DNA from: Eledone cirrhosa
Taxonomy: Eukaryota
Assembly: GCA_964016885.1 (NCBI GenBank)
Contig: OZ024740.1
Coordinates: 407,402,001-407,466,000 of the forward strand
Direction of reading: 5' to 3'
DNA: 64,000 nucleotides
Below are positions 17,687-44,800 of this stretch, piece after piece. Under the pieces are notes generated by a model. The model had not been told where the DNA came from. It saw only the letters and a program-made list of their open reading frames with translations, and ran no database searches. Within the stretch, counting starts at the first letter, position 1, and every line of letters starts with the position of its first letter. The position numbers and the translations under genes are program-made.

Positions 17687-17774
17687 AATAACATTTCACA
17701 AACCGAAAACCCGAGTTTCAACGGGTACAAGCCGAAGCCGAAGCATATAGACAATATGATCCCATGCCCCTCCC

Positions 17775-18015
17775 ACTATAAAGTGGTCATGTAGGTGTCA
17801 TGACAAAAAGCACCCAGTCCACACTGTAAAGTGGTCGTGTAGGTGCCATGGTAAAAAAGCACCCAATACTCACTGTAAATGAAGATGGTGTTAGGAAGGG
17901 CATCCAGCTGTAGAAACCGAGCCAAAGTCAGTACTATATCAGCAAGACTTGGTCACCTGACCTGGCATTGCCCACAACAGGACACCCTGTCTAACCCATG
18001 CTAGCATGGAAACAT
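17775..18015 (+). mobile_element. Family C repeat
   Basis: AAAAAGCACCCAGTCCACACTGTAAAGTGG...GGTGTTAGGAAGGGCATCCAGCTGTAGAAACC...CCCATGCTAGCATGGAAA. Confidence 0.7.
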
Positions 18016-19089: not shown

Positions 19090-20088
19090 TATATTCCCAT
19101 CTCTCTGTCTATATTAATATCTCCCTCTCTATATTTATATCTCCCTGTCTATATTAATATCTCCCTGTCTATATTCCCATCTCTCTGTCTATATTAATAT
19201 CTCCCTGTCTATATTTATATCTCCCTGTCTATATTAATATCTCCCTCTCTATATTAATATCTTCTGTCTATATTAATATCTTCCTGTCTATATTAATATC
19301 TCTCTATCTATATTAATATCTCCCTGTCTATATTAATATCTCTCTGTCTATATTAATATCTCCCTGTCTATATTAATATCTCCCTGTCTATATTAATATC
19401 TTCCTGTCTATATTCCCATCTCTCTGTCTATATTAATATCTTCCTGTCTATATTAATATCTCCCTGTCTATATTAATATCTCCCTATCTATATTAATATC
19501 TTTTGTCTATATTAATATCTCCCTGTCTATATTAATATCTCTCTATCTATATTAATATCTCCCTGTCTATATTAATATCTCCCTGTCTATATTAATATCT
19601 CCCTGTCTATATTAATATCTCTCTGTCTATATTAATATCTCTCTATCTACATTAATATCTCCCTGTATATATTAATATCTCCCTGTCTATATTAATATCT
19701 CCCTATCTATATTAATATCTCCCTGTCTATATTAATATCTCCCTCTCTATAATAATATCTTCTGTCTATATTAATATGTCCCTGTCTATATTAATATCTC
19801 TCTATCCATATTAATATCTCCCTGTCTATATTAATATCTCTCTGTCTATATTAATATCTCCCTGTCTATATTAATATCTCCCTATCTATATTAATATCTC
19901 CCTGTCTATATTAATATCTCCCTGTCTATATTAATATCTCCCTGTCTATATTCCCATCTCTCTGTCTATATTAATATCTCCCTGTCTATATTTATATCTC
20001 CCTGTCTATATTAATATCTCCCTCTCTATATTAATATCTCTCTGTCTATATTAATATCTCTCTGTCTATATTAATATCTCCCTATCTA
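19090..20088. repeat. 20-bp satellite block 1 (TCTATATTAATATCTCCCTG)n
   Basis: Direct 20-nt periodicity. Confidence 0.98.
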
Positions 20089-20886
20089 GGTCACCTGAGG
20101 GCTGTCTGTCCCCAACTTAATAAGAAAACCCCAATCCTGCCTACACCACCAACAACTGCACAACCAACACAATCACCACAACTACCACTACAAAAACAAC
20201 CACCACAGCTCAAACCAAAACAAAACAATGTCCAACCCATCCCCTCCACTCAAAAAACAAAAACAATTTCCAAAACACCCGTACCGCAAACACAACCCGA
20301 AAATATACCCCTCCCCTCCAACGCGGAAGATGACCCTAGTTCGTCGTCAGACGAGGAGGAGCACTTCCACACAATCAAAAGAAAAAAAAGAAAACACACC
20401 TCAGACACACAAATGAAAAAAAACCCTCCCCAAAACATAACACTGACACCAACACAAAAGAGCTCACAACAGCAAACAAAAAACACCACACAAAAACAAA
20501 AACATGCATACACATACATAAATACAAGAAACAAAAAACTGTTAAACATTGTGTACAACAACAATCTAATAAAAACACAAGGGCCTAACTTCACCCAGGC
20601 AGGGGATTTCCCCCACCTCAAAATGATTAAGGCCCCACAGGACACCTATAAAACTTTAAAAAACAATTTTAAAGAGGACGTGGGTCCCCCCTGCGTCGGG
20701 CCCATTAACCGCGTCCTCCTAAAAAACTATCCCACCCCCTCCCCAAACACCCTCACAACTCCAAGCTCCCCAACCACACAACACACTGATGCCCCCACAC
20801 TTCCACAAACCACCACCCCACCCAACAACCCATCCCCCACCCTAATGGAAATTGTGCAGCCCGATACCCGGGACGCAGAGAGGTAA
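20089..20886 (+). pseudogene. Retrotransposon ORF1 (gag-like) C-terminal remnant
   Basis: Starts GHLRAVCP (H-x4-C end of a CCHC knuckle), then low-complexity P/T/K-rich sequence not in a single frame; stop TAA at 20884-20886. Confidence 0.65.
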
Positions 20887-20910
20887 GTGCCTTTTCTCTT
20901 CACCACCAAC

Positions 20911-23900
20911 ATGGCTATGCTAAGAGTAGGCTGTTTAAATGCGCGTGGCCTGGGCTCAACTTGGAAGCAAGCAATGCTTCTAAATGACCTCAGGTCACAA
21001 CGTATAGATGTGATGGTTATTTGCGAGGCCCGGATCAGCAACGTGCGACAGCTGTCCCCCACCTTTGATGACTTTGAGATGCACGCATCTCTCTGTCAGC
21101 CCGGAGGTGGGGGTGGAGTTGTCGTTCTGCTGCAAAAACATCTGGGTCTCGCAACACAGATGGTACATTTGGACCCGGAGGGTCGACTAGTGGTTCTGGA
21201 CCTTGGCAGTGGTAAAGGCGGAGCGTTTAGGTTGGTAGCCGCCTACGGCCCTTTCGGGTCAATGCGGCCGGACTTCTTCCATCGTCTGGAGACTTTTCTA
21301 GGGACGTCCCGCTCCTTGCTATTAGTGGGGGACTGGAATGGTATCCTAGATGTACGCTGGGACTACGTAGGGGCCTGCCCCGATAGAGAGGGGTGTAATA
21401 GCCTCAAAGGGTTAATCGGTCGATTTGACCTGGCCGATAGATATCGACTAGATTTTCCGACTGCGCCAACCTGGACTTGGGCAAATCGTAGCGGATCATC
21501 TAGGTCGTACCTAGATAGGTTCTTAGTTAGAATTAAGGATAAGGACTTTTTAAGTTGTCCAAAAATGCGCATGGTTGGCTATTCAGACCACAAATTAGTG
21601 ACCTGCATGGTCAACCTTGACAGAACTCATAGACAGGGCCCCGGTTACTGGAAGCTCAACTTGTCCTTGCCGGCAAGTAGAGCCTACAGGATTCGGATTA
21701 GTACGTTAGTTAAGGAACGGTTGACTGGAGCGATCGTCAACAGCAGGTGGTGGGTATCTCTAAAGAGAGAGATTAGAGTAGTCTCGTTAGAATTTAGTAA
21801 GGTTCTAGCTGCGGATAGGAATAGGAAGGAAAGGGAGCTAATAGATAGAGTAGAAGAGGCAATTAGAAGCGGCGACGTGGCCAGAGTGCTAGCGTCGAGA
21901 ACGGCTTTGAGCCAGTTTTTCGACGCGAAGCACGAAGGCTGCGTTGTCCGAAGTAAAATACGTGCTCTAGGGAACGAGGGGACCAAAGCTGTTAGCTGGG
22001 CCCGCGTGACAGAGGCCAACAGTGGAACTAAATCCACCATCCGGTCTTTGCGAGACCTGGATGGACGGGCGATTCTTGAGCCTAAGCAGATGTGTGAGGC
22101 CTTTCAAAGGCACTTTGCCCGACTGTTCGGGAGGGGCGGGGAGCCGGTTGGGAACGTGGACTTCGGTCCATACCTCGACGGCCTGCCGCGCCTCTCGGAC
22201 AGGGAGGCGAAGTCCTGCGAGGAGCCGATTTCGGCCGCTGAGATAGAGGACGTGCTGAGCCAATGCGGCAAACGCAAATCCCCGGGTCTCGATGGTCTTC
22301 CTTACGAATTATATCTAGCTATGCCGGACTTGTTCCCCGATCTCCTCGAGGCGGTCTACTGCAACTGGCAACAGAACGGGAGAATTCCCTGTACTGTGAC
22401 CAAGGGCGTAGTCACGCTAGTGAGGAAGGACGAGAACAAGGGGGACGAAATAAGTAACTTCAGGCCCATAACACTGCTAAATACAGAGTTACAGATTTTG
22501 GCCAAGGTGCTAGCAAAGAGGTTGGCGCTTGTCGTGGGCAACCTGGTGGGAGATGCGCAGACATGCGCTATCCCGTCCAGGTCCATCCATGACAACCTCC
22601 ACCTCATGCGATACATCATAGAGAGGGTTGGGAACGAACCCGGCTTTGGTGGGGCTCTGATCAACTTGGATCAATCTAAGGCGTTCGATAGGGTCGACCA
22701 TGGTTACCTGGATGCGGTGCTAGCGGCGGCAGGCTTCGGACCCGTTTTCAGGGGCTGGATCACTGCTATGCACAGCAGCCGCATCTGCTCTAGGGTCAAG
22801 GTGAACGGCTACCTCTCGGAGCCGTTCAAAATCGCGCGGTCCATCCGACAAGGGTGCCCTCTCTCCTCCCTTCTGTATGTGTTGACTCTCGAGCCACTAC
22901 TGCGGAAGTTGGAGTTGTTGCAGGGCATCCCTTTGGAACCGGGATTGCGGAAAGCGGTGTCGGCCTACGCCGATGACGTGACAGTAATGGTGTCGACGGC
23001 CTCCGAAATCGAGGCGGTCGGCACCTTACTGGAGGAGTACGAAAAGTTCACAGGGGCTAAGCTGAACCGGGACAAGTCGATCGGTTTGTAACTCGGCACG
23101 TGGAGGGGCAGACCAATGCCCTCCGATAGCGTCGTCGGACGCTGGACGGAGGGCCCGGTGAAGTTGCTCGGGGTCTGGTTCGGACCGGACCTCCAGGTGG
23201 AGAAAAACTGGGCGGAGGTTACGAACAGGGTGTTTGCACTGACCCAGAAGTGGGCCAGTTGCAAACTATCCCTGAAAGGTCGGGCGGAGGTGGCGAACAC
23301 CTACATAGCGTCCGTCATCTACTACCGCCTGACCGTAGTGCCCTGCCCAAGGGAAACCCTCACCAAGATGGAGCGCGCGCTCTTCCAATTCCTTTGGAAG
23401 AGGCGGGCTCCTATGGTGAGGAGATCCATCTGCTGTCAACACCCTTCGAAAGGAGGGCTGGGGATGCCGTGGCTAATGATGCGTAAACACGCATTAAGGC
23501 TACGGCACCTCTACGTATTCCTCACCGGACAACCGGTGTGGGCCTCGTTTGTGAGACGAACCTTTCCCAGACTCGTCTCACTCACCGAGCTGCAATCCTG
23601 GGTCAAGCAAAGACCGAGAAAACTGGGCGCCTGGCACACTGAGTGTGCCCAGGTGCTCACCGCCCTCTGGCAGGCGGATCCGGTTGTCAGTGGAGACTCC
23701 ACCGCAACATTCTATAGAGGGCTGGTACGCAGCAGGTGCGACGACGCCCTCGGAGAAGCCCTAGACATTGAGGAGGACGAACTGGCCAGCCTGTTCGGTA
23801 GGACATTCAGCCCGGGACCTATGGACAACTTCCAGAAGTCCCTGGCCTGGCAGTGCTACCGAGGGGCTTTACCCGTTCGAGAAAGGCTCTACAGACACGG

Positions 23901-24348
23901 GCGCCCGGGTAGGGACCCCGCCAAAAAGATCTGTCCCAGATGCGTGTGCGACGAGGAAACCGTTGCACACGCATTAGTACACTGCTCGGGCGTAGCCGAT
24001 CTGTGGGGCTATGTCGAACAACTGCTGTCAAGGGTGGGACCGATCCGGTTGACCACCGAGTCTATTGTAATGATCAAGCCGCCTCCCCCCTTCAAAGATG
24101 AAGCAGAGGCGGTGTTTCTGTGCGTAATAGCCATGGCGAAAGAGGTTGTATGGTGGACGCGTCTGAAAGGACTGAGGTCGGGCACCTTTCTCTCTGGCCA
24201 ACAACTGGTCCGTTTCTTCCGATATCATTTCGGAAGAAGGATCAGGATGGAGAGAGAGGTGCTGCACCCCAGCCGTTTCTATGAAAGATGGGTGAAAGTG
24301 GCGAGAATGGCCCGTGTGAATGGGCCTTCACTCTACATCAGACTATAG
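20911..24348 (+). pseudogene. ORF2: APE endonuclease, reverse transcriptase and C-terminal zinc finger (about 1145 codons) with one in-frame stop at 23089-23091
   Basis: APE: LNARGL, CE, AYGP, GDWN, LDRF, SDH; GPGYWKLN; RT: KSPGLDG, FRPITLLN, LDQSKAFDRVDH, RQGCPLS, YADD, LLGV; CPRC..EET..H....C. ORFs 20887 and 23116 share a frame, and copy 2 has CAA at the stop. Confidence 0.93.
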
Positions 24349-24610
24349 GTGAGGAAGATGAAAGACCAAGGGAGCACCCCTTCTCTGTGCTCCTGAGGAG
24401 AAGGGTTGCACACTTTTTTCGGGGGTGTGTGCGACCCCCCAAGGCGCCTCCTCTCTATTGAGGATTTTGTTAAAAATTTTATTTTTTGTTATATCTTATT
24501 TTATTTTTATATTTTGTTATTGCCTCCTCCTTATTGAGGACGCCTTTTTGTGTAAACTCCCCCCTTTGTACTTGTCCCACTTTTGATGCCCTAGTGGCAA
24601 ATAAAAGAAA

Positions 24611-27600
24611 TATATCTATATTAATATCTCCCTGTCTATATTAATATCTCTCTGTCTATATTAATATCTCCCTCTCTATATTAATATCTCCCTGTCTATA
24701 TTAATATCTTCTGTCTATATTAATATCTCTCTGTCTATATTAATATCTTCTGTCTATATTAATATCTCCCTGTCTATATTAATATCTCTCTATCTATATT
24801 AATATCTCCCTGTCTATATTAATATCTCTCTGTCTATATTAATACCTCTCTGTCTATATTAATATCTCCCTGTCTATATCAATATCTCTCTGTCTACATT
24901 AATATCACCCTCTCTATATTAATATCTCCCTGTCTATATTAATATCTCCCTCTCTATATTAATATCTTCTGTCAATATTAATATCTCCCTGTCTATATTA
25001 ATATCTCCCTGTCTATATTAATATCTCCCTGTCTATATTAATAATGCCCTGTCTATATTAATATCTCCCTGTCTATATCAATATCTCCCTGTCTATATTA
25101 ATATCTCTCTATCTACATTAATATCTCCCTGTCTATATTAATATCTCCCTGTCTATATTAATATCTCCCTATCTATATTAATATCTCTCTGTCTATATTA
25201 ATATCTCTCTATCTATATTAATATCTCCCTATCTATATTAATATCTCCCTGTCTATATTAATATCTCCCTGTCTATATTAATATCTTCCTGTCTATATTA
25301 ATATCTTCCTGTCTATATTAATATCTCCCTGTCTATATTAATATCTCCCTGTCTATATTAATATCTTCCTGTCTATATTAATATCTTCCTGTCTATATTA
25401 ATATCTCCCTATCTATATTAATATCTCCCTGTCTATATTAATATCTCCCTTTCTATATTAATATCTCCCTGTCTATATTAATATCTCCCTATCTATATTA
25501 ATATCTCCCTGTCTATATTAATATCTCCCTTTCTATATTAATATCTCCCTGTCTATATTAATATCTCCCTTTCTATATTAATATCCCCCTGTCTATATTA
25601 ATATCTCCCTGTCTATATTAATATCTTCCTGTCTATATTAATATCTCCCTGTCTATATTAATATCTCCCTGTCTATATTAATATCTTCCTGTCTATATTA
25701 ATATCTTCCTGTCTATATTAATATCTCCCTATCTATATTAATATCTCCTTGTCTATATTAATATCTCCCTTTCTATATTAATATCTCCCTGTCTATATTA
25801 ATATCTCCCTCTCTATATTAATATCTTCCTGTCTATATTAATATCTCCCTATCTATATTAATATCTCCCTGTCTATATTAATATCTCCCTTTCTATATTA
25901 ATATCTCCCTGTCTATATTAATATCTCCCTATCTATATTAATATCTCCCTGTCTATATTAATATCTCCCTTTCTATATTAATATCTCCCTGTCTATATTA
26001 ATATCTCCCTTTCTATATTAATATCTCCCTGTCTATATTAATATCTCCCTTTCTATATTAATATCTCCCTTTCTATATTAATATCTCCCTGTCTATATTA
26101 ATATCTCCCTGTCTATATTAATATCTTCCTGTCTATATTAATATCTCCCTGTCTATATTAATATCTCCCTGTCTATATTAATATCTCTCTGTCTATATTA
26201 ATATCTCCCTGTCTATATTAATATCTCCCTGTCTATATTAATATCTCTCTGTCTATATTAATATCTCTCTATCTACATTAATATCTCCCTGTATATATTA
26301 ATATCTCCCTGTCTATATTAATATCTCCCTATCTATATTAATATCTCCCTGTCTATATTAATATCTCCCTCTCTATATTAATATCTTCTGTCTATATTAA
26401 TATGTCCCTGTCTATATTAATATCTCTCTATCTATATTAATATCTCCCTGTCTATATTAATATCTCTCTGTCTATATTAATATCTCCCTGTCTATATTAA
26501 TATCTCCCTGTCTATATTAATATCTTCCTGTCTATATTAATATCTTCCTGTCTATATTAATATCTCCCTATCTATATTAATATCTCTCTGTCTATATTAA
26601 TATCTCCCTTTCTATATTAATATCTACCTGTCTATATTAATATCTTCCTGTCTATATTAATATCTCCCTGTCTATATTAATATCTCCCTGTCTATATTAA
26701 TATCTTCCTGTCTATATTAATATCTTCCTGTCTATATTAATATCTCCCTATCTATATTAATATCTCCCTGTCTATATTAATATCTCCCTTTCTATATTAA
26801 TATCTCCCTGTCTATATTAATATCTCCCTTTCTATATTAATATCTCCCTTTCTATATTAATATCTTCCTGTCTATATTAATATCTCCCTTTCTATATTAA
26901 TATCTCCCTGTCTATATTAATATCTCCCTGTCTATATTAATATCTCCCTGTCTATATTAATATCTCCCTTTCTATATTAATATCTCCCTGTCTATATTAA
27001 TATCTCTCTATCTATATTAATATCTCCCTTTCTATATTAATATCTCCCTGTCTATATTAATATCTTCCTGTCTATATTAATATCTCCCTGTCTATATTAA
27101 TATCTCCCTGTCTATATTAATATCTCTCTATCTATATTAATATCTACCTCTGTATGTTAATATCTCCCTGTCTATATTAATATCTCTCTATCTATATTAA
27201 TATCTCCCTTTCTATATTAATATCTCCCTGTCTATATTAATATCTTCCTGTCTATATTAATATCTCCCTTTCTATATTAATATCTCCCTGTCTATATTAA
27301 TATCTCTCTATCTATATTAATATCTCCCTGTCTATATTAATATCTCCCTTTCTATATTAATATCTCCCTGTCTATATTAATATCTCCCTGTCTATATTAA
27401 TATCTCCCTTTCTATATTAATATCTTCCTGTCTATATTAATATCTCCCTGTCTATATTAATATCTCCCTGTCTATATTAATATCTCCCTGTCTATATTAA
27501 TATCTCCCTTTCTATATTAATATCTCCCTCTCTATATTAATATCTCTCTATCTATATTAATATCTACCTCTGTATGTAAATATCTCCCTGTCTATATTAA

Positions 27601-29543
27601 TATCTCTCTATCTATATTAATATCTCCCTGTCTATATTAATATCTCCCTTTCTATATTAATATCTCCCTGTCTATATTAATATCTCCCTGTCTATATTAA
27701 TATCTCCCTGTCTATATTAATATCTCCCTGTCTATATTAATATCTCCCTATCTATATTAATATCTTCCTGTCTATATTAATATCTCCCTTTCTATATTAA
27801 TATCTCCCTCTCTATATTAATATCTCTCTATCTATATTAATATCTTCTGTCTATATTAATATCTCCCTATCTATATTAATATCTTCCTGTCTATATTAAT
27901 ATCTCCCTGTCTATATTAATATCTCTCTATCTATATTAATATCTCTCTATCTATATTAATATCTCCCTGTCTATATTAATATCTCCCTATCTATATTAAT
28001 ATCTCTCTGTCTATATGATATCTCTCTATCTATATTAATATCTCTCTATCTATATTAATATCTCCCTGTCTATATTAATATCTTCCTGTCTATATTAATA
28101 TCTCTCTATCTATATTAATATCTCCCTGTCTATATTAATATCTCCCTGTCTATATTAATATCTCCCTATCTATATTAATATCTTCCTGTCTATATTAATA
28201 TCTCCCTGTCTATATTAATATCTCTCTATCTATATTAATATCTCCCTGTCTATATTAATATCTCTCTATCTACATTAATATCTCCCTGTCTATATTAATA
28301 TCTCCCTTTCTATATTAATATCTCCCTTTCTATATTAATATCTCTCTATCTATATTAATATCTCTCTGTCTATATTAATATCTCTCTATCTACATTAATA
28401 TCTCCCTGTCTATATTAATATCTCCCTTTCTATATTAATATCTCCCTTTCTATATTAATATCTCCCTATCTATATTAATATCTCTCTGTCTATATGATAT
28501 CTCTCTATCTATATTAATATCTCTCTATCTATATTAATATCTCCCTGTCTATATTAATATCTTCCTGTCTATATTAATATCTCTCTATCTATATTAATAT
28601 CTCCCTGTCTATATTAATATCTCCCTGTCTATATTAATATCTCCCTATCTATATTAATATCTTCCTGTCTATATTAATATCTCCCTGTCTATATTAATAT
28701 CTCTCTATCTACATTAATATCTCCCTGTCTATATTAATATCTCCCTTTCTATATTAATATCTCCCTTTCTATATTAATATCTCCCTATCTATATTAATAT
28801 CTCTCTGTCTATATGATATCTCTCTATCTATATTAATATCTCCCTGTCTATATTAATATCTTCCTGTCTATATTAATATCTCTCTATCTATATTAATATC
28901 TCCCTGTCTATATTAATATCTCCCTGTCTATATTAATATCTCCCTGTCTATATTAATATCTCCCTATCTATATTAATATCTTCCTGTCTATATTAATATC
29001 TCCCTGTCTATATTAATATCTCTCTATCTATATTAATATCTCTCTATCTATATTAATATCTCCCTGTCTATATTAATATCTCTCTATCTATATTAATATC
29101 TCTCTATCTACATTAATATCTCCCTGTCTATATTAATATCTCCCTTTCTATATTAATATCTCCCTTTCTATATTAATATCTCCCTATCTATATTAATATC
29201 TCTCTGTCTATATGATATCTCTCTATCTATATTAATATCTCTCTATCTATATTAATATCTCCCTGTCTATATTAATATCTCTCTATCTATATTAATATCT
29301 CTCTATCTATATTAATATCTCCCTGTCTATATTAATATCTCTCTATCTACATTAATATCTCCCTGTCTATATTAATATCTCCCTTTCTATATTAATATCT
29401 CCCTTTCTATATTAATATCTCTCTATCTATATTAATATCTACCTCTGTATGTTAATATCTCTCTATCTATATTAATATCTACCTCTGTATGTTAATATCT
29501 CTCTATCTATATTAATATCTACCTCTGTATGTTAATATCTCCC
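24611..29543. repeat. 20-bp satellite block 2
   Basis: Same unit and orientation as block 1. Confidence 0.98.
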
Positions 29544-32441
29544 TAAGGAGCGGTTGACAGGCGCCATCGTCAACAGCAGGTGGTGGGATCTCTCAAAAGA
29601 GAGATTAGAGTAGTCTCTATAGAATTTAGTAAGGAGTTAGCCTCAAATAGAAATAGGAAGGAAAGGGAGCTGGTAGATAGTGTAGAAGAGGCAATTGAAG
29701 CGGCGACGTGGCCAGAGTGCTAGCGTCGAGAACGGCCCTGAGCCAGTTCTTCGACGCGAAACACGAAGGCTGCATCGTCCGAAGCAAAATACGTGCTCTG
29801 GGAAACGAGGGGACCAAAGCTGTTAGCTGGGCCCGCGTGACAGAAGCCAACAGAGGGAGCAGATCCACTATCCGGTCTTTGCGAGACCAGGATGGACGGG
29901 TGATCCTTGAACCTAAGCAGATGTGCGAGGCTTTTCAAAAGCACTTTGCCGGATTGTTAGGAAGGGGCGGGGAGCCGGTTGGGGATGTGGACTTCCGTCC
30001 ATACCTCGACGGCCTGCTGCGTCTCTCGGACAGGGAGGCGAAGTCCTGCGAGGAGCCTATTTCAGCCGCTGAGATAGAGGACGTGTTAAGCCAATGCGGC
30101 AAAAGCAAATCCCCGGGTCTCGATGGTCTTCCATACGTACTGTATCTAGCTATGCCGGACTTGTTCCCCGATCTCCTCAAGGCGGTCTACTGCAACTGGC
30201 AACAGAACGGGAGAATTCCCTGTGCTGTGACCAAGGGCGTAGTCACGCTAGTGAGGAAGGACGAGAACAAGGGGGACAATATAAATAATTTCAGGCCCAT
30301 AACTCTGCTAAATACAGAGTTACAGATTTTGGCCAAGATGCTAGCAAAGAGGTTCGCGCTTGTCATGGGCAACCTGGTGGGAGATGCGCAGACATGTGCT
30401 ATCCCGTCCAGGTCCATCCACGACAACCTCCACCTTATGCAATACATCATAGAGAGGGTTGGGAATGAACCCGGCTTTGGTGGGGCCCTGATCAACTTGG
30501 ATCAATCTAAGGCGTTCGATAGGATCGACCATGGTTACCTGGATGCGGTGCTAGCGGCGGCAGGCTTCGGACCCGTTTTCAGGGGCTGGATCAATGCCAT
30601 GCACAGCAGCCGCATCTGCTCTAGGGTCAAGGTGAACGGCTACAGCTCGGAGCCGTTCGAAATCGCGCGGTCCATCCGACAAGGGTGCCCTCTCTCCTCC
30701 CTTCTGTATGTAATGACTCTTGAGCCACTGCTGCGGAAGTTGGAGTTGTTGCAGGGCATCCCGTTGGAACCGGCATTGCGGAAAGCGGTGTCGGCCTACG
30801 CCGATGACGTAACAGTAATGGTGTCGACGGCCTCGGAAATCGGGGCGATCGGCACCTTACTTGAGGAGTACGAAAGGTTTACAGGGGCTAAGCTGAACCG
30901 GGACAAGTCGATCGGTCTGCAACTTGGCACGTTGAGGGGCAGATCGATGCCCTCCGATGGCGTCGTCGGGCGTTGGACGGAGGGCCCGGTGAAGTTGCTC
31001 GGAGTCTGGTTCGGACCAGACATCCAGGTGGAGAAGAACTGGGGTGAGGTAACGAACAGGGTGTTTGCACTAACCCAGAAGTGGGCCGAGTGCAAATTTT
31101 CCCTGAAAGGTCGGGCAGAGGTGGCGAACACTTATATAGCGTCCGTCATCTACTACCACCTGACCGTTGTGCCTTGCCCAAGGTAAACGCTCGCCAAAAT
31201 GGAGGGCGCACTCTTCCAATTCCTTTGGAAGAAGCGGGCTCCTATAGTGAGGAGATCCACCTGCTGTCAACACCCTTCAAAAGGAGGGCTGGGGATGCCG
31301 TGGCTAATGATATGTAAACACGCATTAAGGCTACGGCACCTTCAGGTATTCCTCACCGGTCAACCGGTGTGGGCCCCGTTTGTGAGGCGAACCTTTCCCA
31401 GACTCGTCTCACTCACCGAGCTGCAATCCTGGGTCAAGCAAAGACCGAGAAAACTGGGCGCCTGGCACACCGAGTGTGCCCAGGCGCTCACGGCTCTCTG
31501 GCAGGCGGACCCGGCTGTCAGTGGAGAATCCACCTCGTCATTCTATAGAGGGCTGGTGGTTAGCAGGTGCGACGACGCCCTCGGAGAAGCCCTAGGCATG
31601 GAGGAAGACGAACTGGCCAACCTGTTCGGTAGGACATTCAGCCCGGGACCCATGGATAACTTCCAGAGGTCCCTGGCCTGGCAATGCTACAGAAGGGCTC
31701 TGCCCGTTCGAGAAAGGCTCTACAGACACGGGCGCCCGGGTAGGGACCCATCGAAAAAGATCTGTCCCAGATGCGTGTGCGACGAGGAAACCGTTGCACA
31801 CGCATTGGTACACTGCTCGGGCATTGCCGATCTGTCGGGCTATGTCGAACAACTGCTGTCAAGGGTGGGACCGATCCGGTTGACCACCGAGTCTATTGTA
31901 ACGATCAAGCCGCCTCCCCTCTTCAAAAACGAAGGAGAGGCGGTGTTTCAGTGCGTAATAGCCATGGCGAAAGAGGTTGTATGGTGGACGCGTCTGAAAG
32001 GACTGAGGTCAGACACCTTTCTCTCTGGCCAACAACTGGTCCGTTTCTTCCGATATCATTTCGGAAGAAGGATCAGGATGGAGAGAGAGGTGCTGCACCC
32101 TAGCCGTTTCTATGAAAGATGGGTGAAAGTGGCGAGAATGGCCCGTGTGAATGGGCCTTCACTCTACATCAGACTATAGGTGAGGAAGATGAAAGACCAA
32201 GGGAGCAAACCTTCTCTGTGCTCCTGGGGGGAAAGGGTTGCACACTATTTTCGGGGGTGTGTGCGACCCCCCAAGGCGCCTCCTCTCTATTGAGGACTTT
32301 GTTATAAATTTCATTTTTGTTATATTTTATTTTATTTTTATATATTGTTATTGCCTCCTCCTTATTGAGGACGCCTTGTTTTCTAAACTCCCCCCATTGT
32401 ACTTGTCCCACTTTTGATGCCCTGGTGGCAAATAAAAGAAA
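29544..32441 (+). mobile_element. Tx1/L1-clade retrotransposon copy 2, 5'-truncated after the endonuclease, diverged subfamily
   Basis: Colinear with 21711-24610; RT motifs intact; stop at 31184-31186 (GAA in copy 1); small indels near the 5' end; same 3' UTR. Confidence 0.95.
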
Positions 32442-34444
32442 CATATCTATATTAATATCTCCCTGTCTATATTAATATCTCTCTATCTACATTAATATCT
32501 CCCTGTCTATATTAATATCTCCCTGTCTATATTAATATCTCCCTGTCTATATTAATATCTCCCTGTCTATATTAATATCTTCCTGTCTATATTAATATCT
32601 CTCTGTCTATATTAATATCTCTCTGTCTATATTAATATCTTCTGTCTATATTAATATCTCCCTGTCTATATTAATATCTCCCTGTCTATATTAATATCTT
32701 CTGTCTATATTAATATCTCTCTGTCTATATGATATCTCTCTATCTATATTAATATCTCCCTGTCTATATTAATATCTCCCTGTCTATATTAATATCTCCC
32801 TGTCTCTAATAATATCTTCCTGTCTATATTAATATCTCTCTGTCTATATTAATATCTCTCTGTCTATATTAATATCTTCTGTCTATATTAATATCTCCCT
32901 GTGTATATTAATATCTCTCTGTCTATATTAATATCTCTCTATCTATATTAATATCTCCCTGTCTATATTAATATCTCCCTGTCTATATTAATATCTCCCT
33001 GTCTATATTAATATCTCCCTGTCTATATTAATATCTCTCTGTCTATATGATATCTCTCTATCTATATTAATATCTCCCTGTCTATATTAATATCTCCCTG
33101 TCTATATTAATATCTCCCTGTCTCTAATAATATCTTCCTGTCTATATTAATATCTCTCTGTCTATATTAATATCTCCCTGTCTACATTAATATCTCCCTG
33201 TCTATATTAATATCTCCCTGTCTATATTAATATCTCCCTGTCTATATTAATATCTGCCCATCTATATTAATATCTCCCTGTCTATATTAATATCTCCCTG
33301 TCTATATTAATATCTCCCTGTCTATATTAATATCTCCCTGTCTATATTAATAACGCCCTGTCTATATTAATATCTCCCTGTCTATATCAATATCTCCCTG
33401 TCTATATTAATATCTCTCTATCTACATTAATATCTCCCTGTCTATATTAATATCTACCTGTCTATATTAATATCTCCCTGTCTATATTAATATCTCCCTG
33501 TCTATATTAATATCACCCTCTCTATCTACATTAATATCTCCCTGTCTATATTAATATCTCCCTGTCTATATTAATATCTCTCTATCTACATTAATATCTC
33601 CCTGTCTATATTAATATCTCCCTGTCTATATTAATATCACCCTCTCTATCTACATTAATATCTCCCTGTCTATATTAATATCTCCCTGTCTATATTAATA
33701 TCTCCCTGTCTATATTAATATCTCTCTATCTACATTAATATCTCCCTGTCTATATTAATATCTTCTGTCTATATTAATATCTCCCTGTCTATATTAATAT
33801 CTCTCTATCTATATTAATATCTCCCTGTCTATATTAATATCTCCCTGTCTATATTAATATCTCCCTATATTAATATCTCTCTGTCTATATTAATATCTCT
33901 CTGTCTATATTAATATCTCTCTATCTATATTAATATCTCTCTATCTACATTAATATCTCCCTGTCTATATTAATATCTCCCTGTCTATATTAATATCTCC
34001 CTGTCTATATTAATATCTCCCTGTCTATATTAATATCTTCTGTCTATATTAATATCTCCTTGTCTATATTAATATCTCTCTATCTATATTAATATCTCCC
34101 TGTCTATATTAATATCTCCCTCTCTATATTAATATCTCCCTGTCTATATTAATATCTTTCTATCTACATTAATATCTCCCTGTCTATATTAATATCCCCC
34201 TGTCTATATTAATGTCTCTCTATCTATATTAATATCTCTCTGTCTATATTAATATCTCCCTGTCTATATTAATATCTTCTGTCTATATTAATATCTCTCT
34301 ATCTATATTAATATCTCTCTATCTACATTAATATCTCCCTGTCTATATTAATATCTCCCTGTCTATATTAATATCTTCTGTCTATATTAATATCTCTCTG
34401 TCTATATTACTATCTCTCTATCTATATTAATATCTCCCTGTCTG
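32442..34444. repeat. 20-bp satellite block 3
   Basis: Same unit and orientation. Confidence 0.98.
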
Positions 34445-35581
34445 TAATGATGCGTAAACACGCATTAAGGCTACGGCACCTCTACGTATTCCTCACCGGA
34501 CAACCGGTGTGGGCCTCGTTTGTGAGACGAACCTTTCCCAGACTCGTCTCACTCACCGAGCTGCAATCCTGGGTCAAGCAAAGACCGAGAAAACTGGGCG
34601 CCTGGCACACTGAGTGTGCCCAGGCGCTCACCGCCCTCTGGCAGGCGGATCCGGTTATCAGTGGAGACTCCACCGCAACATTCTATAGAGGGCTGGTACG
34701 CAGCAGGTGCGACGACGCCCTCGGAGAAGCCCTAGACATGGAGGAGGACGAACTGGCCAGCCTGTTCGGTAGGACATTCAGCCCGGGACCTATGGACAAC
34801 TTCCAGAAGTCCCTGGCCTGGCAGTGCTACCGAGGGGCTTTACCCGTTCGAGAAAGGCTCTACAGACACGGGCGCCCGGGTAGGGACCCCGCCAAAAAGA
34901 TCTGTCCCAGATGCGTGTGCGACGAGGAAACCGTTGCACACGCATTAGTACACTGCTCGGGCGTAGCCGATCTGTGGGGCTATGTCGAACAACTGCTGTC
35001 AAGGGTGGGACCGATCCGGTTGACCACCGAGTCTATTGTAATGATCAAGCCGCCTCCCCCCTTCAAAGATGAAGCAGAGGCGGTGTTTCTGTGCGTAATA
35101 GCCATGGCGAAAGAGGTTGTATGGTGGACGCGTCTGAAAGGACTGAGGTCGGGCACCTTTCTCTCTGGCCAACAACTGGTCCGTTTCTTCCGATATCATT
35201 TCGGAAGAAGGATCAGGATGGAGAGAGAGGTGCTGCACCCCAGCCGTTTCTATGAAAGATGGGTGAAAGTGGCGAGAATGGCCCGTGTGAATGGGCCTTC
35301 ACTCTACATCAGACTATAGGTGAGGAAGATGAAAGACCAAGGGAGCACCCCTTCTCTGTGCTCCTGAGGAGAAGGGTTGCACACTTTTTTCGGGGGTGTG
35401 TGCGACCCCCCAAGGCGCCTCCTCTCTATTGAGGATTTTGTTAAAAATTTTATTTTTTGTTATATCTTATTTTATTTTTATATTTTGTTATTGCCTCCTC
35501 CTTATTGAGGACGCCTTTTTGTGTAAACTCCCCCCTTTGTACTTGTCCCACTTTTGATGCCCTAGTGGCAAATAAAAGAAA
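34445..35581 (+). mobile_element. Tx1/L1-clade retrotransposon copy 3, last 1.1 kb only
   Basis: Nearly identical to 23474-24610 (about three substitutions seen by eye). Confidence 0.95.
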
Positions 35582-38500
35582 TATATCTATATTAATATCT
35601 CCCTGTCTATATTAAAATCTCCCTGTCTATATTAATATCTCTCTGTCTATATTAATATCTCCCTGTCTATATTAATATCCCCCTGTCTATATTAATATCT
35701 CTCTATCTATATTAATATCTCTCTATCTATATTAATATCTCCCTGTCTATATTAATATCTCTCTATCTACATTAATATCTCCCTGTCTATATTAATATCT
35801 CCCTGTCTATATTAATATCTCCCTGTCTATATTAATATCTCTCTGTCTATATTAATATCTCCCTGTCTATATTAATATCTCTCTATCTACATTAATATCT
35901 CCCTGTCTATATTAATATCTGCCCATCTATATTAATATCTCCCTGTCTATATTAATATCTCCCTGTCTATATTAATATCTCCCTGTCTATATTAATATCT
36001 TCCTGTCTATATTAATATCTTCCTGTCTATATTAATATCTCCCTGTCTATATTAATATCTCCCTGTCTATATTAATATCGCCCTGTCCATATTAATATCT
36101 CCCTGTCTATATTAATATCTCTCTATCTACATTAATATCTCCCTGTCTATATTAATATCTCCCTGTCTATATTAATATCTCCCTGTCTATATTAATATCT
36201 CTCTGTCTATATTTATATCTCCCTGTCTATATTAATATCTCTCTATCTACATTAATATCTCCCTGTCTATATTAATATCTGCCCATCTATATTAATATCT
36301 CCCTGTCTATATTAATATCTCCCTGTCTATATTAATATCTCCCTGTCTATATTAATATCTCCCTGTCTATATTAATATCTCTCTGTCTATATTTATATCT
36401 CCCTGTCTATATTAATATCTCTCTATCTACATTAATATCTCCCTGTCTATATTAATATCTGCCCATCTATATTAATATCTCTCTGTCTATATTAATATCT
36501 TCTGTCTATATTAATATCTCCCTGTCTATATTAATATCGCCCTGTCTATATTAATATCTTCTGTCTATATTAATATCTCTCTGTCTATATGATATCTCTC
36601 TATCTATATTAATATCTCCCTGTCTATATTAATATCTCCCTGTCTATATTAATATCTCCCTGTCTCTAATAATATCTTCCTGTCTATATTAATATCTCTC
36701 TGTCTATATTAATATCTCTCTGTCTATATTAATATCTTCTGTCTATATTAATATCTCCCTGTGTATATTAATATCTCTCTGTCTATATTAATATCTCTCT
36801 ATCTATATTAATATCTCCCTGTCTATATTAATATCTCCCTGTCTATATTAATATCTCCCTGTCTATATTAATATCTCCCTGTTTATATTAATATCTCTCT
36901 ATCTATATTAATATCTCCCTGTCTACATTAATATCTCCCTGTCTATATTAATATCTCCCTGTCTATATTAATATCTGCCCATCTATATTAATATCTCCCT
37001 GTCTATATTAATATCTCCCTGTCTATATTAATATCTCCCTGTCTATATTAATATCTTCCTGTCTATATTAATATCTTCCTGTCTATATTAATATCTCCCT
37101 GTCTATATTAATATCTCCCTGTCTATATTAATATCGCCCTGTCCATATTAATATCTCCCTGTCTATATTAATATCTCTCTATCTACATTAATATCTCCCT
37201 GTCTATATTAATATCTCCCTGTCTATATTAATATCTCCCTGTCTATATTAATATCTCTCTGTCTATATTTATATCTCCCTGTCTATATTAATATCTCTCT
37301 ATCTACATTAATATCTCCCTGTCTATATTAATATCTGCCCATCTATATTAATATCTCCCTGTCTATATTAATATCTCCCTGTCTATATTAATATCTCCCT
37401 GTCTATATTAATATCTCCCTGTCTATATTAATATCTCTCTGTCTATATTTATATCTCCCTGTCTATATTAATATCTCTCTATCTACATTAATATCTCCCT
37501 GTCTATATTAATATCTGCCCATCTATATTAATATCTCTCTGTCTATATTAATATCTTCTGTCTATATTAATATCTCCCTGTCTATATTAATATCGCCCTG
37601 TCTATATTAATATCTTCTGTCTATATTAATATCTCTCTGTCTATATGATATCTCTCTATCTATATTAATATCTCCCTGTCTATATTAATATCTCCCTGTC
37701 TATATTAATATCTCCCTGTCTCTAATAATATCTTCCTGTCTATATTAATATCTCTCTGTCTATATTAATATCTCTCTGTCTATATTAATATCTTCTGTCT
37801 ATATTAATATCTCCCTGTGTATATTAATATCTCTCTGTCTATATTAATATCTCTCTATCTATATTAATATCTCCCTGTCTATATTAATATCTCCCTGTCT
37901 ATATTAATATCTCCCTGTCTATATTAATATCTCCCTGTTTATATTAATATCTCTCTATCTATATTAATATCTCCCTGTCTATATTAATATCTGCCCATCT
38001 ATATTAATATCTCCCTGTCTATATTAATATCTCCCTGTCTATATTAATATCTCCCTGCCTATATTAATATCTTCCTGTCTATATTAATATCTTCCTGTCT
38101 ATATTAATATCTCCCTGTCTATATTAATATCTCCCTGTCTATATTAATATCGCCCTGTCTATATTAATATCTCCCTGTCTATATTAATATCTCTCTATCT
38201 ACATTAATATCTCCCTGTCTATATTAATATCTCCCTGTCTATATTAATATCTCCCTGTCTATATTAATATCTCTCTGTCTATATTTATATCTCCCTGTCT
38301 ATATTAATATCTCTCTATCTACATTAATATCTCCCTGTCTATATTAATATCTGCCCATCTATATTAATATCTCCCTGTCTATATTAATATCTCCCTGTCT
38401 ATATTAATATCTCCCTGTCTATATTAATATCTCCCTGTCTATATTAATATCTCTCTGTCTATATTTATATCTCCCTGTCTATATTAATATCTCTCTATCT

Positions 38501-38610
38501 ACATTAATATCTCCCTGTCTATATTAATATCTGCCCATCTATATTAATATCTCCCTGTCTATATTAATATCTCCCTGTCTATATTCACATCTTTTTATCT
38601 ATATTCACAT
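35582..38610. repeat. 20-bp satellite block 4
   Basis: Same unit; degenerates to TCTATATTCACATC at the right edge. Confidence 0.98.
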
Positions 38611-38890
38611 ATATTCACTTATAAAAAGGTTGTTGATAGGAAGGACATGAATTTGTAGAAAACTTATTCCAAAAAAAGGACCGGGAGGAGCCTGCACCTA
38701 TGTCTCAGACATGACAACCACCCTAGTGATGGTGCTACAATAATATGCAATGTTAGACGGCCGGAACGCATGTCAGAAATATGCAAGTTCTTGGTTCATA
38801 CGAGTTGTTAGTTGGTCGGCTTCATTAATCACTTGGTGTGTAATGATCAATGGAACCTTTGCTAACTGGTAGAACTAATTTTAAATGATG

Positions 38891-41800
38891 ATCTCACTGC
38901 TGTCTTCACATCTCTATACTGTCTTCACATCTCACTACTGTCTCCTCATCTCTCTACTGTCCTCACATCTCTCTACTGTCTTCACATCTCTCTACTGTCT
39001 TCACATCTCACTACTGTCCTCACATCTCATTACTGTCTTCACATCTCTCTACTGTCTTCACATCTTTCTATTGTACTCACATCTCTCTACTGTCTTCACA
39101 TCACTATACTGTCTTCCCATCTCACTACTGTCTTCATATCTGACTACTGTCCTCACATTTCACTACTGTCCTCACAACTCTCTACTGTCCTCACATCTCT
39201 CTACTGTCTTCACATCTCTCTACTGTCTTCACATCTCGCTACTGTCTTCACATATCACTACTGTACTCACATCTCACTACTGTCCTTACATCTCTCTACT
39301 ATCTTCACATCTCACTACTGTCCTCACAACTGTCTACTGACTTCACATCTTTCTACTGTCTTCAGATCTCTCTACCGTCTTCACATGTCATTACTGTCCT
39401 CACATCTCTCTACTGTCTTCACATCTCACTACTGTCCTCACATCTCACTACTGTCTTCACATCTCTCTACTCTCCTCCCATCTCTCTACTGTCCTCACAG
39501 TCTACTGTCTTCACATCTCACTACTTTCTTCACATCTCTCTACTGTCCTCACATTTCTCTACTGTCTTCACATCTGACTACTGTCTTCACATCTCTCTAC
39601 TGTCTTCACATCACTCTACTGTCCTCACATCTTACTACTGTACTTACATCTCTCTACTCTCATCAGATCTCACTACTGTCTTGATATCTCTCTACTGTCT
39701 TCACATCTCATTACTCTTTTCACATCTAAATAATCTGTCTTGACATCTCTCTACTGTCGTTACAACTGTCTACTGTCTTCACATCTCACTACTGTCTTCA
39801 AATCTCATTGCTGTCCTCACGTCTTACTACTGTCTTCACATCTTACTACTGTCTTAACATCTCACTACTGTCTTCACATCTCACTACTGTCCTCACAACA
39901 GTCTACTGTCTTCACGTCTTTCTACTGTCTTCACATCTCTTTACCGTCTTCACATCTCACTACTGTCCTCACATCTCAATACTGTCCTCACATCTCACTG
40001 CTGTCTTCACATCTCTCTACTGTCTTCACATCTCACTAGTGTCTTCACATCTCTCTACTGTATTTACATCTCATTACTGTCCTCACATCTCACTACTGTC
40101 TTCACATCTCTCTAATGTCTTCACATCTCACTAGTGTCCTCACATCTCACTACTGTCTTCACATCTCTCTACTGTCTTCATATCTCTCTACTGACTTCAC
40201 ATCCCTCTACTGTCTTCACATCTCTCTACTGTCTTCACATCTCACGACTGTCCTCACATCTCACTACTGTCTTCACAACTGTCTACTGTCTTCACATCTT
40301 TCTACTGTCTTCAGATCTCTCTACTATCTTCACATCTCTCTACTGTCTTACAATCTCACTACTGTCTTGACATCTCTCTACTGTCCTCACATCTCTCTAC
40401 TGTCCTCACATCTCACTATTGTCTTCACATCTCACTATTTTCTTAACATCTCTCTACTGTCCTCACATTTCTCTACTGTGTTCACATCTCTCTACTGCCC
40501 TCACATCTTACTACTGTACTTACATCTCTCTACTCTCATCAGATCTCACTACTGTCTTCACATCTCTCTACTGTCTTCACATCTCATCACCCACTTCACA
40601 TCTCACTACAGTCTTGACATCTCTCTACTGTCCTCACAACTGGCTACTGTCTTCATATCTGACTACTGTCTTCACATCTTACTACTGTCTTCACATCTTA
40701 CTACCATATTCACATGTTACTACTGTCTTCACATCTCACTGCTGCCTTCACATCTTACTACTGTCTTCACATATCACTACTGTCTTCACATCTCACTACT
40801 GTCATTACATCTTACTACTGTCCTTACATGTCTCTACTGTCCTCACATCTCACTACTGTCTTCACATCTTACTACTGTCCTTACATGTCTCTACTGTCCT
40901 CACATCTCTCTAGTGTCTCCACATCTCACTGCTGTCCTCACACCTCTCTACTGTCTTCCCATCTCACTACTATCTTCACATCTCTCTACTTTCCTCACAT
41001 ATCACTACTATCTTCACTTCTCTCTACTGTCCTCACATCTCACTACTGTCTTCACATCTCACTACTGTCCTCACATCTCACTACTGTCTGCACATCTCAA
41101 TACTGTCTTCACATATCTCTACTGTCCTCACATCTGACTACTGTCTTCACAACTTACTACTGTCTTCACATCTCTCTACTGTCCTCATATCTTACTACTG
41201 TCCTCACATCTCACTACTGTCTTCACATCTCACTACTGTCTACACAACTTACTACTGTCTTCACCTCTCTACTGTCCTCACATCTCACTAATGTCTTCAA
41301 ATCTCACTACTGTCTTCACATCTCAATATTGTCTTCACATCTCTCTACTGTCCGCACATCTCTCTACTGTCTTCACATTCACTAGTGTCCTCACATCTCA
41401 CTACTGTCTTCACATCTCACTACTGTCTTCACATCTATCTACTGTCTTGACATCTCCCTACTGTCTTCACATCTCACTAGTGTCTTCACATCTCTCTACT
41501 GTCTTTACATCTCTCTACTGTCGTCACATCTCACTACTGTCCTCACATCTCACTACTGTCTTCACATCTCTCTTCTGTCTTCACATCTCACTATTGTCTT
41601 CACATCTCTCTACTGTATTTACATCTCATTACTGTCCTCACATCTCACTACTGTCTTCACATCTCTCTAATGTCCTCACATCTCACTACTGTCTTCACAT
41701 CTCTCATCTGTCTTCACATCTCTCTACTGTCTTCATATCTCTCTACTGACTTCACATCCCTCTACTGTCTTCACATCTCACTACTGTCCTCACGTCTCAC

Positions 41801-44800
41801 TACTGTCTTTATATCTCTCTACTGCCTTAACATCTCTCTACTGTCTTCACATCGCTCTACTGTCTTCCCATGTCACTACTGTCTTCATATCTGACTACTG
41901 TCTTGACATCTCTCTACTGTCTTCACAACAGTCTCCTGTCTTCACATCTCTCTACTGTCTTCATATCTCTCTACTGTCTTCACATCCCTCTACTGTCTTC
42001 ACATCTCTCTACTGTCTTCATATCTCTCTACTGACTTCACATCCCTCTACTGTCTTCACATCTCACTACTGTCCTCACATCTCACTACTGTCTTTATATC
42101 TCTCTACTGCCTTAACATCTCTCTACTGTCTTCACATCGCTCTACTGTCTTCCCATGTCACTACTGTTTTCACATCTCTCTACTGTCTTCACATTCACTA
42201 GTGTCCTCATATCTCACTACTGTCTTCACATCTCACTACTGTTTTTACATCTACCTACTGTCTTCACATCGCACTACTGTCTCCACATCTCTCTACTGTC
42301 CTCACATCTCTGTACTGTCTTCACATCTCACTAGTGTCCTCACATCTCACTAGTGTCTTCACATCTCTCTAATGTATTTACATCTCATTACTGTCCTCAC
42401 ATCTCACTACTGTCTTCACATTTCTCTACTGTCTTCACATCTCACTACTGTCCTCACATCTCACTACTGTCTTCACATCACTCTTCTGTCTTCACATCTC
42501 TCTACTGTTTTCATATCGCTCTACTGAATTCACATCCCTCTACTGTCCTCACATCTCACTACTGTCTTCACATCTCACTACTGTTTTTACATCTATCTAC
42601 TGTCTTCACATCTCACTACTGTCTTCACATCTATCTACTGTCTTCACATCTCTCTACTGTCTTCACATCTTACTAGTGTCTTCACATCTCTCTACTGTCT
42701 TTACATCTCATTACTGTCCTCACATCTCACTACTGTCTTTACATCTCATTACTGTCCTCACATCTCACTACTGTCTTCACATCTCTCTACTGTCTTCACA
42801 TTCACTAGTGTCCTCATATCTAACTACTGTCTTCACATCTCACTACTGTTTTTACATCTACCTACTGTCTTCACATCGCACTACTGTCTCCACATCTCTC
42901 TACTGTCCTCACATCTCTCTACTCTCTTCACATCTCACTAGTGTCCTCACATCTCACTACTGTCTTCACATCTCTCTACTGTCCTCACATCTCTCTACTG
43001 TCTTCACATCTCTCTACTGTCTTCACATCTCACTATTGTCCTCACAACTCACTACTGTCTTCACGTCTCTGTTCTGTCTTCACATCTCACTACTGTCCCC
43101 ACATCTCACTACTGTCTTCACATCTCTCTTCTGTCTTCACATCTCTCTACTGTCTTCACATCGCTCTACTGTTTTCCCATCTCACTACTGTCATCATATC
43201 TGATTACTGTCTTGACATCTCTCTACTGTCCTCACAACTGTCTACTGTCTTCACATCTCTCTACTGTCTTCACATCTCTCTAATGTCTTCACATCTCATT
43301 GCTGTACCCATATCTTACTACTGTCTTCACATCTTACTACTGTCTTCACATCTCACTTCCGTCTTCACATCTCACTACTGTCCTGACAACAGTCTACTGT
43401 CTTGACGTCTTTCTACTGTTTTCACATCTCTTTACCGTCTTCACATCTCACTACGGTCCTCACATCTCACTACTGTCTTCACATCTCACTACTGTCTTCA
43501 CATCCCTCTACTGTCTTCACATCTCTCTAATGTCTTCACATCTCATTGCTGTACTCATATCTTACTACTGTCCTCACATCTCACTACTGTCTCCACATCT
43601 TAATACTGTTGCCACATCTCATTACCATATTCACATCTCACTACTGTCTTCACATCTCAATATTGTCTTCACATCTCACTACTGTCTACACAACTTACTA
43701 CTGTCTTCACATCTCTCTACTGTCCTCACATCTCACTACTGTCTTCACATCTCACTAGTCTCTTCACATCTCAATACTGTCTTAACATCTCTCTACTGTC
43801 CTCACATCTCTCTACTGTCTTCACATTCACTAGTGTCCTCACATCTCACTACTGTCTTCACATCTTACTACTCTCTTCACATCTATCTACTGTCTTCACA
43901 TCTCTCTACTGTCTTCACATCTCACTACTGTCCTCACATCTCACTACTGTCTTCACATCTCTCTTCTGTCTTCACATCTCTCTACTGTCTTCATATCTCT
44001 CTACTGAATTCACATCCCTCTACTGTCTTCACATCTCTCTACTGTCTTCACATCTCACTAGTGTCTTCACATCTCTCTACTGTATTTACATCTTATTACT
44101 GTCCTCACATCTCACTACTGTCTTCACATCTCTCTACTGTCTTCACATCTCATTAGTGTCCTCACATCTCACTACTGTCTTCACATCTCTCTACTGTCCT
44201 CACATCTCACTACTGTCTTCACATCTCTCTACTGTCTTCATATCTCTCTACTGTCTTCACATCTCTCTACTGTCCTCACATCTCACTACTGTCTTCACAT
44301 CTCTCTACTGTCTTCACATCTCATTAGTGTCCTCACATCTCACTACTGTCTTCACATCTCTCTACTGTCCTCACATCTCACTACTGTCTTCACATCCCTC
44401 TACTGTTTTCACATCTCTCTACTGTCTTCACATCTCTCTACTGTCCTCACATCTCACTACTGTCTTCACATCTCTCTACTGTCCTCACATCTCACTACTG
44501 TCTTCACATCTCTCTACTGTCTTCACATCTCTCTACTGTCGTCACATCTCATTGCTGTCCTCACATCTTACTACTGTCTTCACATCTCACTACTGTCTTC
44601 ACATCTTAATACTGTCTTCACATCTCACTACTGTGCTCACAACAGTCTACTGTCTTCACGTCTTTCTACTGTCTTTACATCTCTTTACCGTCTTCACATC
44701 TCACTACTGCCCTGACATCTCTCTACTGTCCTCCCATCTCACTACTGTCCTCACATCTCACTACTGTCTTCACAGCCCTCTATTGTCCTCACATCTCTCT

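Follow-up and report, generated by a model that had tools for sequence, protein, structure and literature searches.

Three copies of one long interspersed nuclear element (LINE) lie in a single 20-bp minisatellite of the octopod Eledone cirrhosa, on the same strand and in the same register, which raises the question of what directed them there. The locus is a stretch of 64,000 nucleotides (nt) from the forward strand of contig OZ024740.1 (NCBI GenBank assembly GCA_964016885.1, positions 407,402,001 to 407,466,000), hereafter the window, in which the positions below are counted. An earlier note on this DNA had proposed that the element, assigned to the Tx1 clade and encoding an apurinic/apyrimidinic endonuclease (APE) and a reverse transcriptase (RT), recognizes the minisatellite as its specific target and that such a target had not been described. 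A search of the 3.0-Gb genome gave a different answer. Very likely, copies of this LINE, a probable member of the Tx1 group, occupy the short word TAT(C/A)T, which for most of them lies in a (TATC)n or (TA)n microsatellite, and three independent insertions entered the 20-bp array because its units carry this word.

Genomic copies share a short word as their probable target

Copies were counted by a pattern search with a 27-nt piece of the 3' end, which gives a lower bound of at least 3,422 exact genome-wide matches (1,759 forward, 1,663 reverse; control 0). The junction between the element and the 20-bp unit had three matches in the genome, all in the window, and the junction with TATCTATCT had 2,306 (the latter query had a different prefix, so some of these may lie outside the 3,422). 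Junctions and flanks were read in 100 sampled copies, the first 100 listed, which come from the first 100 Mb of contig 1. Outside the window the 20-mer junction was present in 0 of the 100. Positions 3-5 and 7 after GAAA were T, A, T and T in every sampled copy, a TAT-N-T pattern that supports the claim of sequence-biased insertion. The junction read TATCTAT in 77 copies, TATATAT in 12 and TATCTCT in 2. The two bases directly after GAAA were CA, TA or CT according to subfamily in 99 of the 100 and belong to the element, and poly(A) was found at none of the 100 3' junctions.

Tandem Repeats Finder (TRF) detected a microsatellite of period <=6 at 59 of the right flanks, a longer period at 14 and no repeat at 27; nine of the 14 were short or compound simple repeats and five were real minisatellites with units of 28, 28, 28, 32 and 66 bp. 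Three or more TAT(C/A) tetramers within 24 nt were present on the right flank of 69 copies, on the left flank of 58 and on both flanks of 50, compared with 5 of 1,120 background windows, and a TAT(C/A)T word lay within 33 nt of the left junction in 73 copies versus 75 of 407 background windows. As TAT(C/A) runs are found on both sides of the element, the repeat must have been there before insertion, as a target, and is more than a tail. At the 36 loci having non-periodic right flanks, a search anchored at the right junction found exact duplications in 19 cases, 6-20 nt long when measured from TAT (microhomology accounts for up to 4 nt of these lengths). The upstream copy of these 19 duplications starts with TAT(C/A)T and the bases preceding it are usually unlike the dinucleotide of the element; seven of the loci are still microsatellite-like. 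Copies in unique DNA have neither an added TATC run nor poly(A). Given that the upstream duplication copy starts with the word and that the copies in unique DNA lack a TATC run, the word pre-exists at the site.

Target specificity has been defined as one sequence type in >20% of flanks (PMC4494074). The tetramer counts given above exceed this value for (TATC)n/(TA)n on either side, and the 20-bp unit does not reach it (0/100 sampled copies; 3 junctions genome-wide against 3,422 ends). Insertion of the Kibi/Koshi type into (TC)n or (TTC)n was not matched, all 100 junctions starting with TAT. The 20-bp minisatellite thus fails as a specific target, holding only 3 of at least 3,422 copies and none of those sampled in an array found at a single locus. 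The flank tabulation that the earlier note had proposed as a check placed most copies outside the 20-bp unit, the outcome it had itself named as contrary to its claim. Nor is a satellite target undescribed for Tx1 elements, since 'Sat, satellites' already stands among the known targets in the Fig. 3 legend of PMC4494074. The claimed new target class gives way to one that has been measured, the TATC/TA repeats occupied by a young, high-copy family that is likely of the Tx1 group.

Minisatellites (28, 32 and 66 bp) containing TATCT or TATAT words host the copies L086, L087, L063, L071 and L045. L086 and L087 (G000:C1:45.73-45.74 Mb) are two co-oriented copies lying in different phases of one 28-bp minisatellite.

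Three copies in the 20-bp array

The 20-bp array occupies 19091-38620 in four segments and is separated by unique DNA from a 31-bp array to its left. The segments and element copies are as follows.

19091..20088, + strand: 20-bp segment a, unit TCTATATTAATATCTCCCTG, left of copy 1; 49.7 copies by TRF
20089..24612, + strand: copy 1, 5'-truncated LINE, likely of the Tx1 group, young 'TA-tail' subfamily; 99.6% to the full-length copy L061
20089..20886, + strand: 3' part of open reading frame 1 (ORF1) of copy 1, codons 328-592 of 592 aa; tblastn 99.6% to L061 ORF1
20887..24348, + strand: ORF2 of copy 1, first ATG 20911; APE endonuclease, RT and C-terminal zf-RVT
24349..24612, + strand: 3' untranslated region of copy 1, last letters AATAAAAGAAA-TA, without a poly(A) tail
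24613..29544, + strand: 20-bp segment b; 52 TATCTAT words
29545..32443, + strand: copy 2, older 'CA-tail' subfamily, from ORF2 residue 276; 93% to L061
32444..34444, + strand: 20-bp segment c (TRF, repeat-variant map)
34445..35583, + strand: copy 3, young 'TA-tail' subfamily, from ORF2 residue 863
35584..38620, + strand: 20-bp segment d, with ~1-kb higher-order repeats inside

BLASTN of the window with copy 1 as query confirmed that there are three + strand copies confined to the 20-bp array and detected no further copy >40 nt. As the earlier note had read them, the truncation points differ: copy 1 begins at ORF1 codon 328 (within the zinc knuckle), copy 2 after the endonuclease at ORF2 residue 276 and copy 3 late in ORF2 at residue 863. 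ORF2 of copy 1 has a single in-frame stop (23089-23091) and matches Pfam Exo_endo_phos (3.7e-7), RVT_1 (9.8e-26) and zf-RVT (6.5e-6). Copy 2 has two frame changes near 29586-29705 plus one stop; its nearest sampled relative is L054 (17 differences in ~1,134 nt).

The last base of AATAAAAGAAA lies at 24610, 32441 and 35581 and is followed by (T/C)ATATCTATATTAATATCTCCCTG. The common 3' junction is therefore as first read, except that the (T/C)A after GAAA is the end of the element and not target sequence. The left flanks also stop where the note placed them, but their near-equal phase carries little information, because apparent target duplications elsewhere are about 6 to 20 nt long and the unit is 20 nt. 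The left flank of copy 1 ends in CCCTATCT(A), with an apparent target duplication of 5-6 nt. The parsimonious reading for copy 2 is a duplication of 0-2 nt with TA microhomology, and for copy 3 it is 25 nt or, on an alternative reading, about 2-5 nt. Duplications of 5-6, 0-2 and 25 nt taken modulo 20 give near-equal left phases. The parsimonious readings place all three copies at TATCTAT units.

All 77 occurrences of TATCTAT in the 20-bp segments are on the + strand, and the word takes only one phase of the unit (76 of 540 units). Its asymmetry between strands and its single phase per unit explain why all insertions into this array have strand and register in common. Any target word that is short and strand-asymmetric will place insertions into one satellite in the same register, so that such a pattern calls for caution. 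An exact dimer of the unit had 79 matches in the genome, every one inside the window; by this exact-match search, which diverged 20-bp arrays elsewhere would escape, the array is single-locus.

Probable independence of the insertions

The copy comparison took in the 62 of 103 copies of sufficient length. Over their common 1,134 nt, 3 differences separate copies 1 and 3, and copy 2 has 64-65 differences from them (~94% identity) and falls in another subfamily clade (100/100 split), which confirms that at least two lineages share the site. Copies 1 and 3 have no common variant that is missing from 19 young copies. The three private changes of copy 1 are absent from copy 3, which lies nearer to L076 (1 difference) than to copy 1 (3 differences), with 1-2 differences separating it from L076, L061, L082 and L112. 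The repeat-variant strings adjoining the three junctions are mutually different. Segments a and b have a higher-order block in common in the repeat-variant map, and such blocks are common to both sides of copies 1 and 3; hence the array was continuous before the insertions and is older than they are.

The three copies look like independent insertions, and private variants, the subfamily split and the flanking variant strings support the claim of independent insertions from at least two subfamilies. An origin of all three from one insertion, through duplication and deletion within the array, or a misassembly, would fit the 99.7% identity of copies 1 and 3 and an array having ~1-kb internal duplications, but it is very improbable, as copy 2 belongs to another subfamily, copies 1 and 3 lack any common private variant and the strings of repeat variants around the copies differ.

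The element family and its affiliation

The LINE family is abundant and recently active. Many sampled copies are 99-100% identical to one another, and the family is therefore young. The 5' end is reached by 16 of the 100 copies, the complete element being ~5.7 kb, and several copies keep both ORF1 and ORF2 open. Full-length L061 encodes a 592-aa ORF1 with one CX2CX4HX4C knuckle and a 1,153-aa ORF2. Pfam Exo_endo_phos, RVT_1 and zf-RVT were found on L061 as well as on ORF2 of copy 1; the zf-CCHC match of ORF1 is weak (E 0.051, below the cut-off). A separate ORF1 with a CCHC zinc knuckle is a feature of the Tx1 clade.

Among named proteins the closest comes from Argonauta hians (63% identity across 70% of the query, 67% in RT), in keeping with an octopod host. 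ORF2 scored 313-370 bits against three fish proteins (P0296, P0330 and P0198): a YTX2-named paddlefish protein gave 313, the Tetraodon pol-like protein P0330 gave 341 and a medaka RT gave 370. The human L1 score was 168.5 and those of plant L1s were 76-143; the partial Tx1-named Takifugu proteins P0297 and P0299 gave only 75 and 107 bits. In a FastTree phylogeny of 71 RT rows (L166 dropped) the element, two close relatives and eight unnamed proteins form a clade of their own with support 1.0. This clade lies inside a group (0.953) that holds the Tx1-named P0296, the Tetraodon pol-like P0330 and elements flanked by U2 small nuclear RNA (snRNA) genes, and outside the plant L1s, no vertebrate L1 being in the tree. 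The element thus likely belongs to the Tx1 group within the L1 group. The APE and RT domains of the note's 'Tx1-clade APE-RT element' are secure, and its Tx1 membership is provisional on a tree of this composition.

The large clusters P0122, P0007 and P0008 (up to 732 members) of unnamed European Nucleotide Archive proteins, 41-54% identical, are sister to the octopod clade. The ESM Atlas and a cluster look-up returned unnamed RT/APE clusters only, with no family names, and a metagenome scan for relatives returned only distant ones (best segments 23-43% identity, among the best 80 of 530). Among 24 public sequencing runs listed, 20 contain part of the element, and no RNA run is listed among those that do. 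Sequence near-identical to 23500-24600 occurs in public runs of many organisms, eight of the listed runs having at least half of its words, and on this evidence the family is probably common to related species.

Sister Tx1-like families, 75-88% identical, occur at L044, L047, L049, L056, L058, L061, L109, L110 and other loci, in tandem with the studied family and on the same strand, with related 3' ends followed by TATC. These tandem sister families are a radiation with one common target word. At L077-L079 (G000:C1:42268242-42269578) three near-identical short copies follow one another as direct repeats at distances of 399 and 911 nt and have flanking duplications in common.

A proposed course of insertion

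From the junctions we infer an order of events of the target-primed reverse transcription type. The APE domain, whose catalytic positions align with those of human L1, would nick the ATAGATA-type strand within ~3 nt of the start of TATCTAT, a placement suggested because TATAT, TATTT and TATCTG junctions occur. An RNA ending in ...GAAA-(CA/TA/CT)-UAUCU(AU), without poly(A), would pair with the freed 3' end and prime cDNA synthesis. Second-strand cleavage at a variable distance, 0-25 nt downstream, would then produce variable duplications, and 5' truncation is frequent.

Several observations weigh against the view that TAT(C/A)T explains the insertions. The TATCTA variant of the unit is unambiguous only on the left flank of copy 1, copies 2 and 3 fitting either variant. 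The TATCT of the right flank may be partly derived from the RNA, so the nick position is not pinned. The word is absent within 33 nt of the left junction in 27 of the 100 copies, and no duplication was seen at 17 of the 36 non-periodic loci, where many 5' ends are internal breaks. The sample is not a random draw, and the RT tree held neither vertebrate L1 nor Repbase references. Finally, the array has received more copies than the word predicts. There are 466,453 TATCTATAT sites in the genome and 74 in the 20-bp array, and 7 of the 100 sampled junctions are of that form. At the rate given by those seven, 0.038 insertions are expected from the TATCTATAT count, and three are seen (P of >=3 ~9e-6, post hoc). 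At uniform density the expectation is 0.0125 copies in the 11-kb array.

This local excess is general rather than peculiar to the window array. A neighbour within 15 kb was found for 26 of the 100 sampled copies (2.9% expected), and the close neighbour pairs were co-oriented in 14 of 14 cases. The sampled loci contained 55 further LINE-like 3' ends on the same strand and none on the opposite strand (some of these ends are counted twice where loci overlap). Hotspots, safe harbours and insertion into the flanks of neighbours are candidate causes.

Alternative accounts of targeting

The excess, together with three insertions in one register from two subfamilies, is what speaks for an endonuclease that recognizes the 20-bp minisatellite as such. 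We consider this extremely improbable, given the share of copies in this single-locus array (3 of at least 3,422; 0 of 100 sampled) and the relationships of the copies: copies 1 and 3 are only 1-6 differences away from copies in (TATC)n. With copies 1 and 3 so close to (TATC)n copies, and copy 2 itself among such copies, there is no array-specific lineage. Weakly biased insertion, with the pattern arising from retention in arrays and the TATC runs being tails made by the element, would suit the strong clustering and a microsatellite-rich genome with so many TATCTATAT sites. It seems improbable, however, because young copies (99-100% identical) show the identical junction, the repeat is present on 58 of the 100 left flanks, and in unique DNA no TATC run was added and the duplications start at the word.

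Another possibility, and one we regard as rather unlikely although compatible with targeting of TAT(C/A)T, is that the target is set mainly by RNA-DNA pairing: a loose endonuclease would nick A/T-rich DNA, the 3' end of a read-through RNA would select pairable sites, and subfamilies would inherit the repeat in which their source copy sits. The lack of poly(A) at all sampled junctions is in its favour, as is the CT-tail subfamily, which reads TATA in 7 of 15 copies versus 7 of 85 others (Fisher P 0.0008; the copies are related and not independent events), a bias that hints at such pairing. Passages of PMC6007223 discuss pairing of this kind for RTE, I, R1Bm and R2Ol. On the other side, the window copies show no parent-offspring relation and no sign of a satellite-bearing guide transcript, most close pairs elsewhere mix subfamilies, and the sister families use the identical word. 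Local hopping guided by satellite-bearing transcripts likewise found no support in the window, given the lack of a parent-offspring relation.

Targeting of TAT(C/A)T can be extended to a broader conjecture, which we put forward as speculative and somewhat doubtful: an uncatalogued octopod Tx1 radiation targets (TATC)n/(TA)n, the target is partly encoded in the RNA (tail dinucleotides and read-through ends shift subfamilies between TATC and TA), and long motif-bearing minisatellites are true hotspots beyond their motif count. If so, the many copies of this radiation would offer a natural data set in which endonuclease choice in an APE-type LINE could be told apart from RNA-guided priming.

Comparison with known elements

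Tx1L in DNA transposons, Mutsu in 5S ribosomal DNA and Dewa in transfer RNA arrays are Tx1-clade elements with defined targets. Published Tx1 families also occupy (TC)n, (TTC)n, (TTCC)n and (TTTC)n, U2 genes and transposons (PMC4494074, PMC3812793), and PMC4640811 describes Keno, and YURE with a preference for satellites. Site-specific LINEs among the APE clades are confined to Tx1 and R1 according to PMC6007223, which also discusses priming by 3' repeats. The fish elements Kibi and Koshi, at (TC)n and (TTC)n, and the crocodilian Tx1-1_Crp-type families, at (TTCC)n/(TTTC)n, prefer the pyrimidine-rich microsatellite strand, as does the element studied here. The present element works like Kibi and Koshi with a different repeat unit; it differs from them and from the crocodilian families in its word, TAT(C/A)T in (TATC)n and (TA)n, and in its octopod host, and from the fish Tx1-named proteins in that its RT stands in a clade of its own (support 1.0). 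In the literature searched, which took in neither Repbase nor the PMC4494074 supplements and few subscription papers, we found no Tx1 element targeting TATC or (TA)n and no target of an octopus Tx1 element. Microsatellite-targeting Tx1 elements are thus already known from fish and crocodilians, and the repeat unit and the host may be new.

Thirteen recently active L1-Tx1 families with 421 insertions are listed for Octopus vulgaris (PMC13282606, Table 1), and L1-Tx1 is among the repeats expanded in coleoids (PMC8967140). These have the same group label as our element; the passages concerned give no target sites. Human LINE-1 has the same ORF2 layout and APE catalytic positions, but its score lies far below the 313-370 bits of the fish Tx1-type proteins and our element differs from it in the zinc-knuckle ORF1, the lack of junction poly(A) and the target word.

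Keno targets U2 snRNA genes, and the U2-flanked L141, L134, L136, L144 and L148 fall in the same broad RT group as our element. The 3' junction of the Keno-like L141 also starts with TATCT, which hinted at an origin from a U2-targeting Keno lineage. We reject this origin for now, as the studied family had no genome-wide match to the exact U2-type junction and is not sister to those elements in the tree. Metagenome contigs with a Tx1-like ORF2 beside U2 snRNA, and one beside U1 snRNA, were L141, L144, L148 and L165, the positions concerned being:

L141: 1-123 and 5806-5947
L144: 4675-4885
L148: 5815-5977
L165: 8091-8245

The shares of the endonuclease and of RNA-DNA pairing in LINE targeting are described as not well understood (PMC3812793). 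With open ORF1/ORF2 copies and thousands of junctions, the present family is usable for weighing the two.

Other features of the window

Two further arrays flank the region and served as controls.

1..5630, no strand: 31-bp array; TATCT 0 and TATCTAT 0 on both strands; no element copy
38891..64000, no strand: 19-bp array; TATCTAT 3 in 25 kb; no element copy

No credible Pfam family was detected for seven ORFs located in the unique stretch. The same stretch contains a 78-bp tandem repeat at 15411-15952 (6.9 copies, 98% matches) and a 48-bp repeat at 17774-17879. In the 19-bp array, paired ORF coordinates suggest a duplication of ~2.9 kb at 53199-59793.

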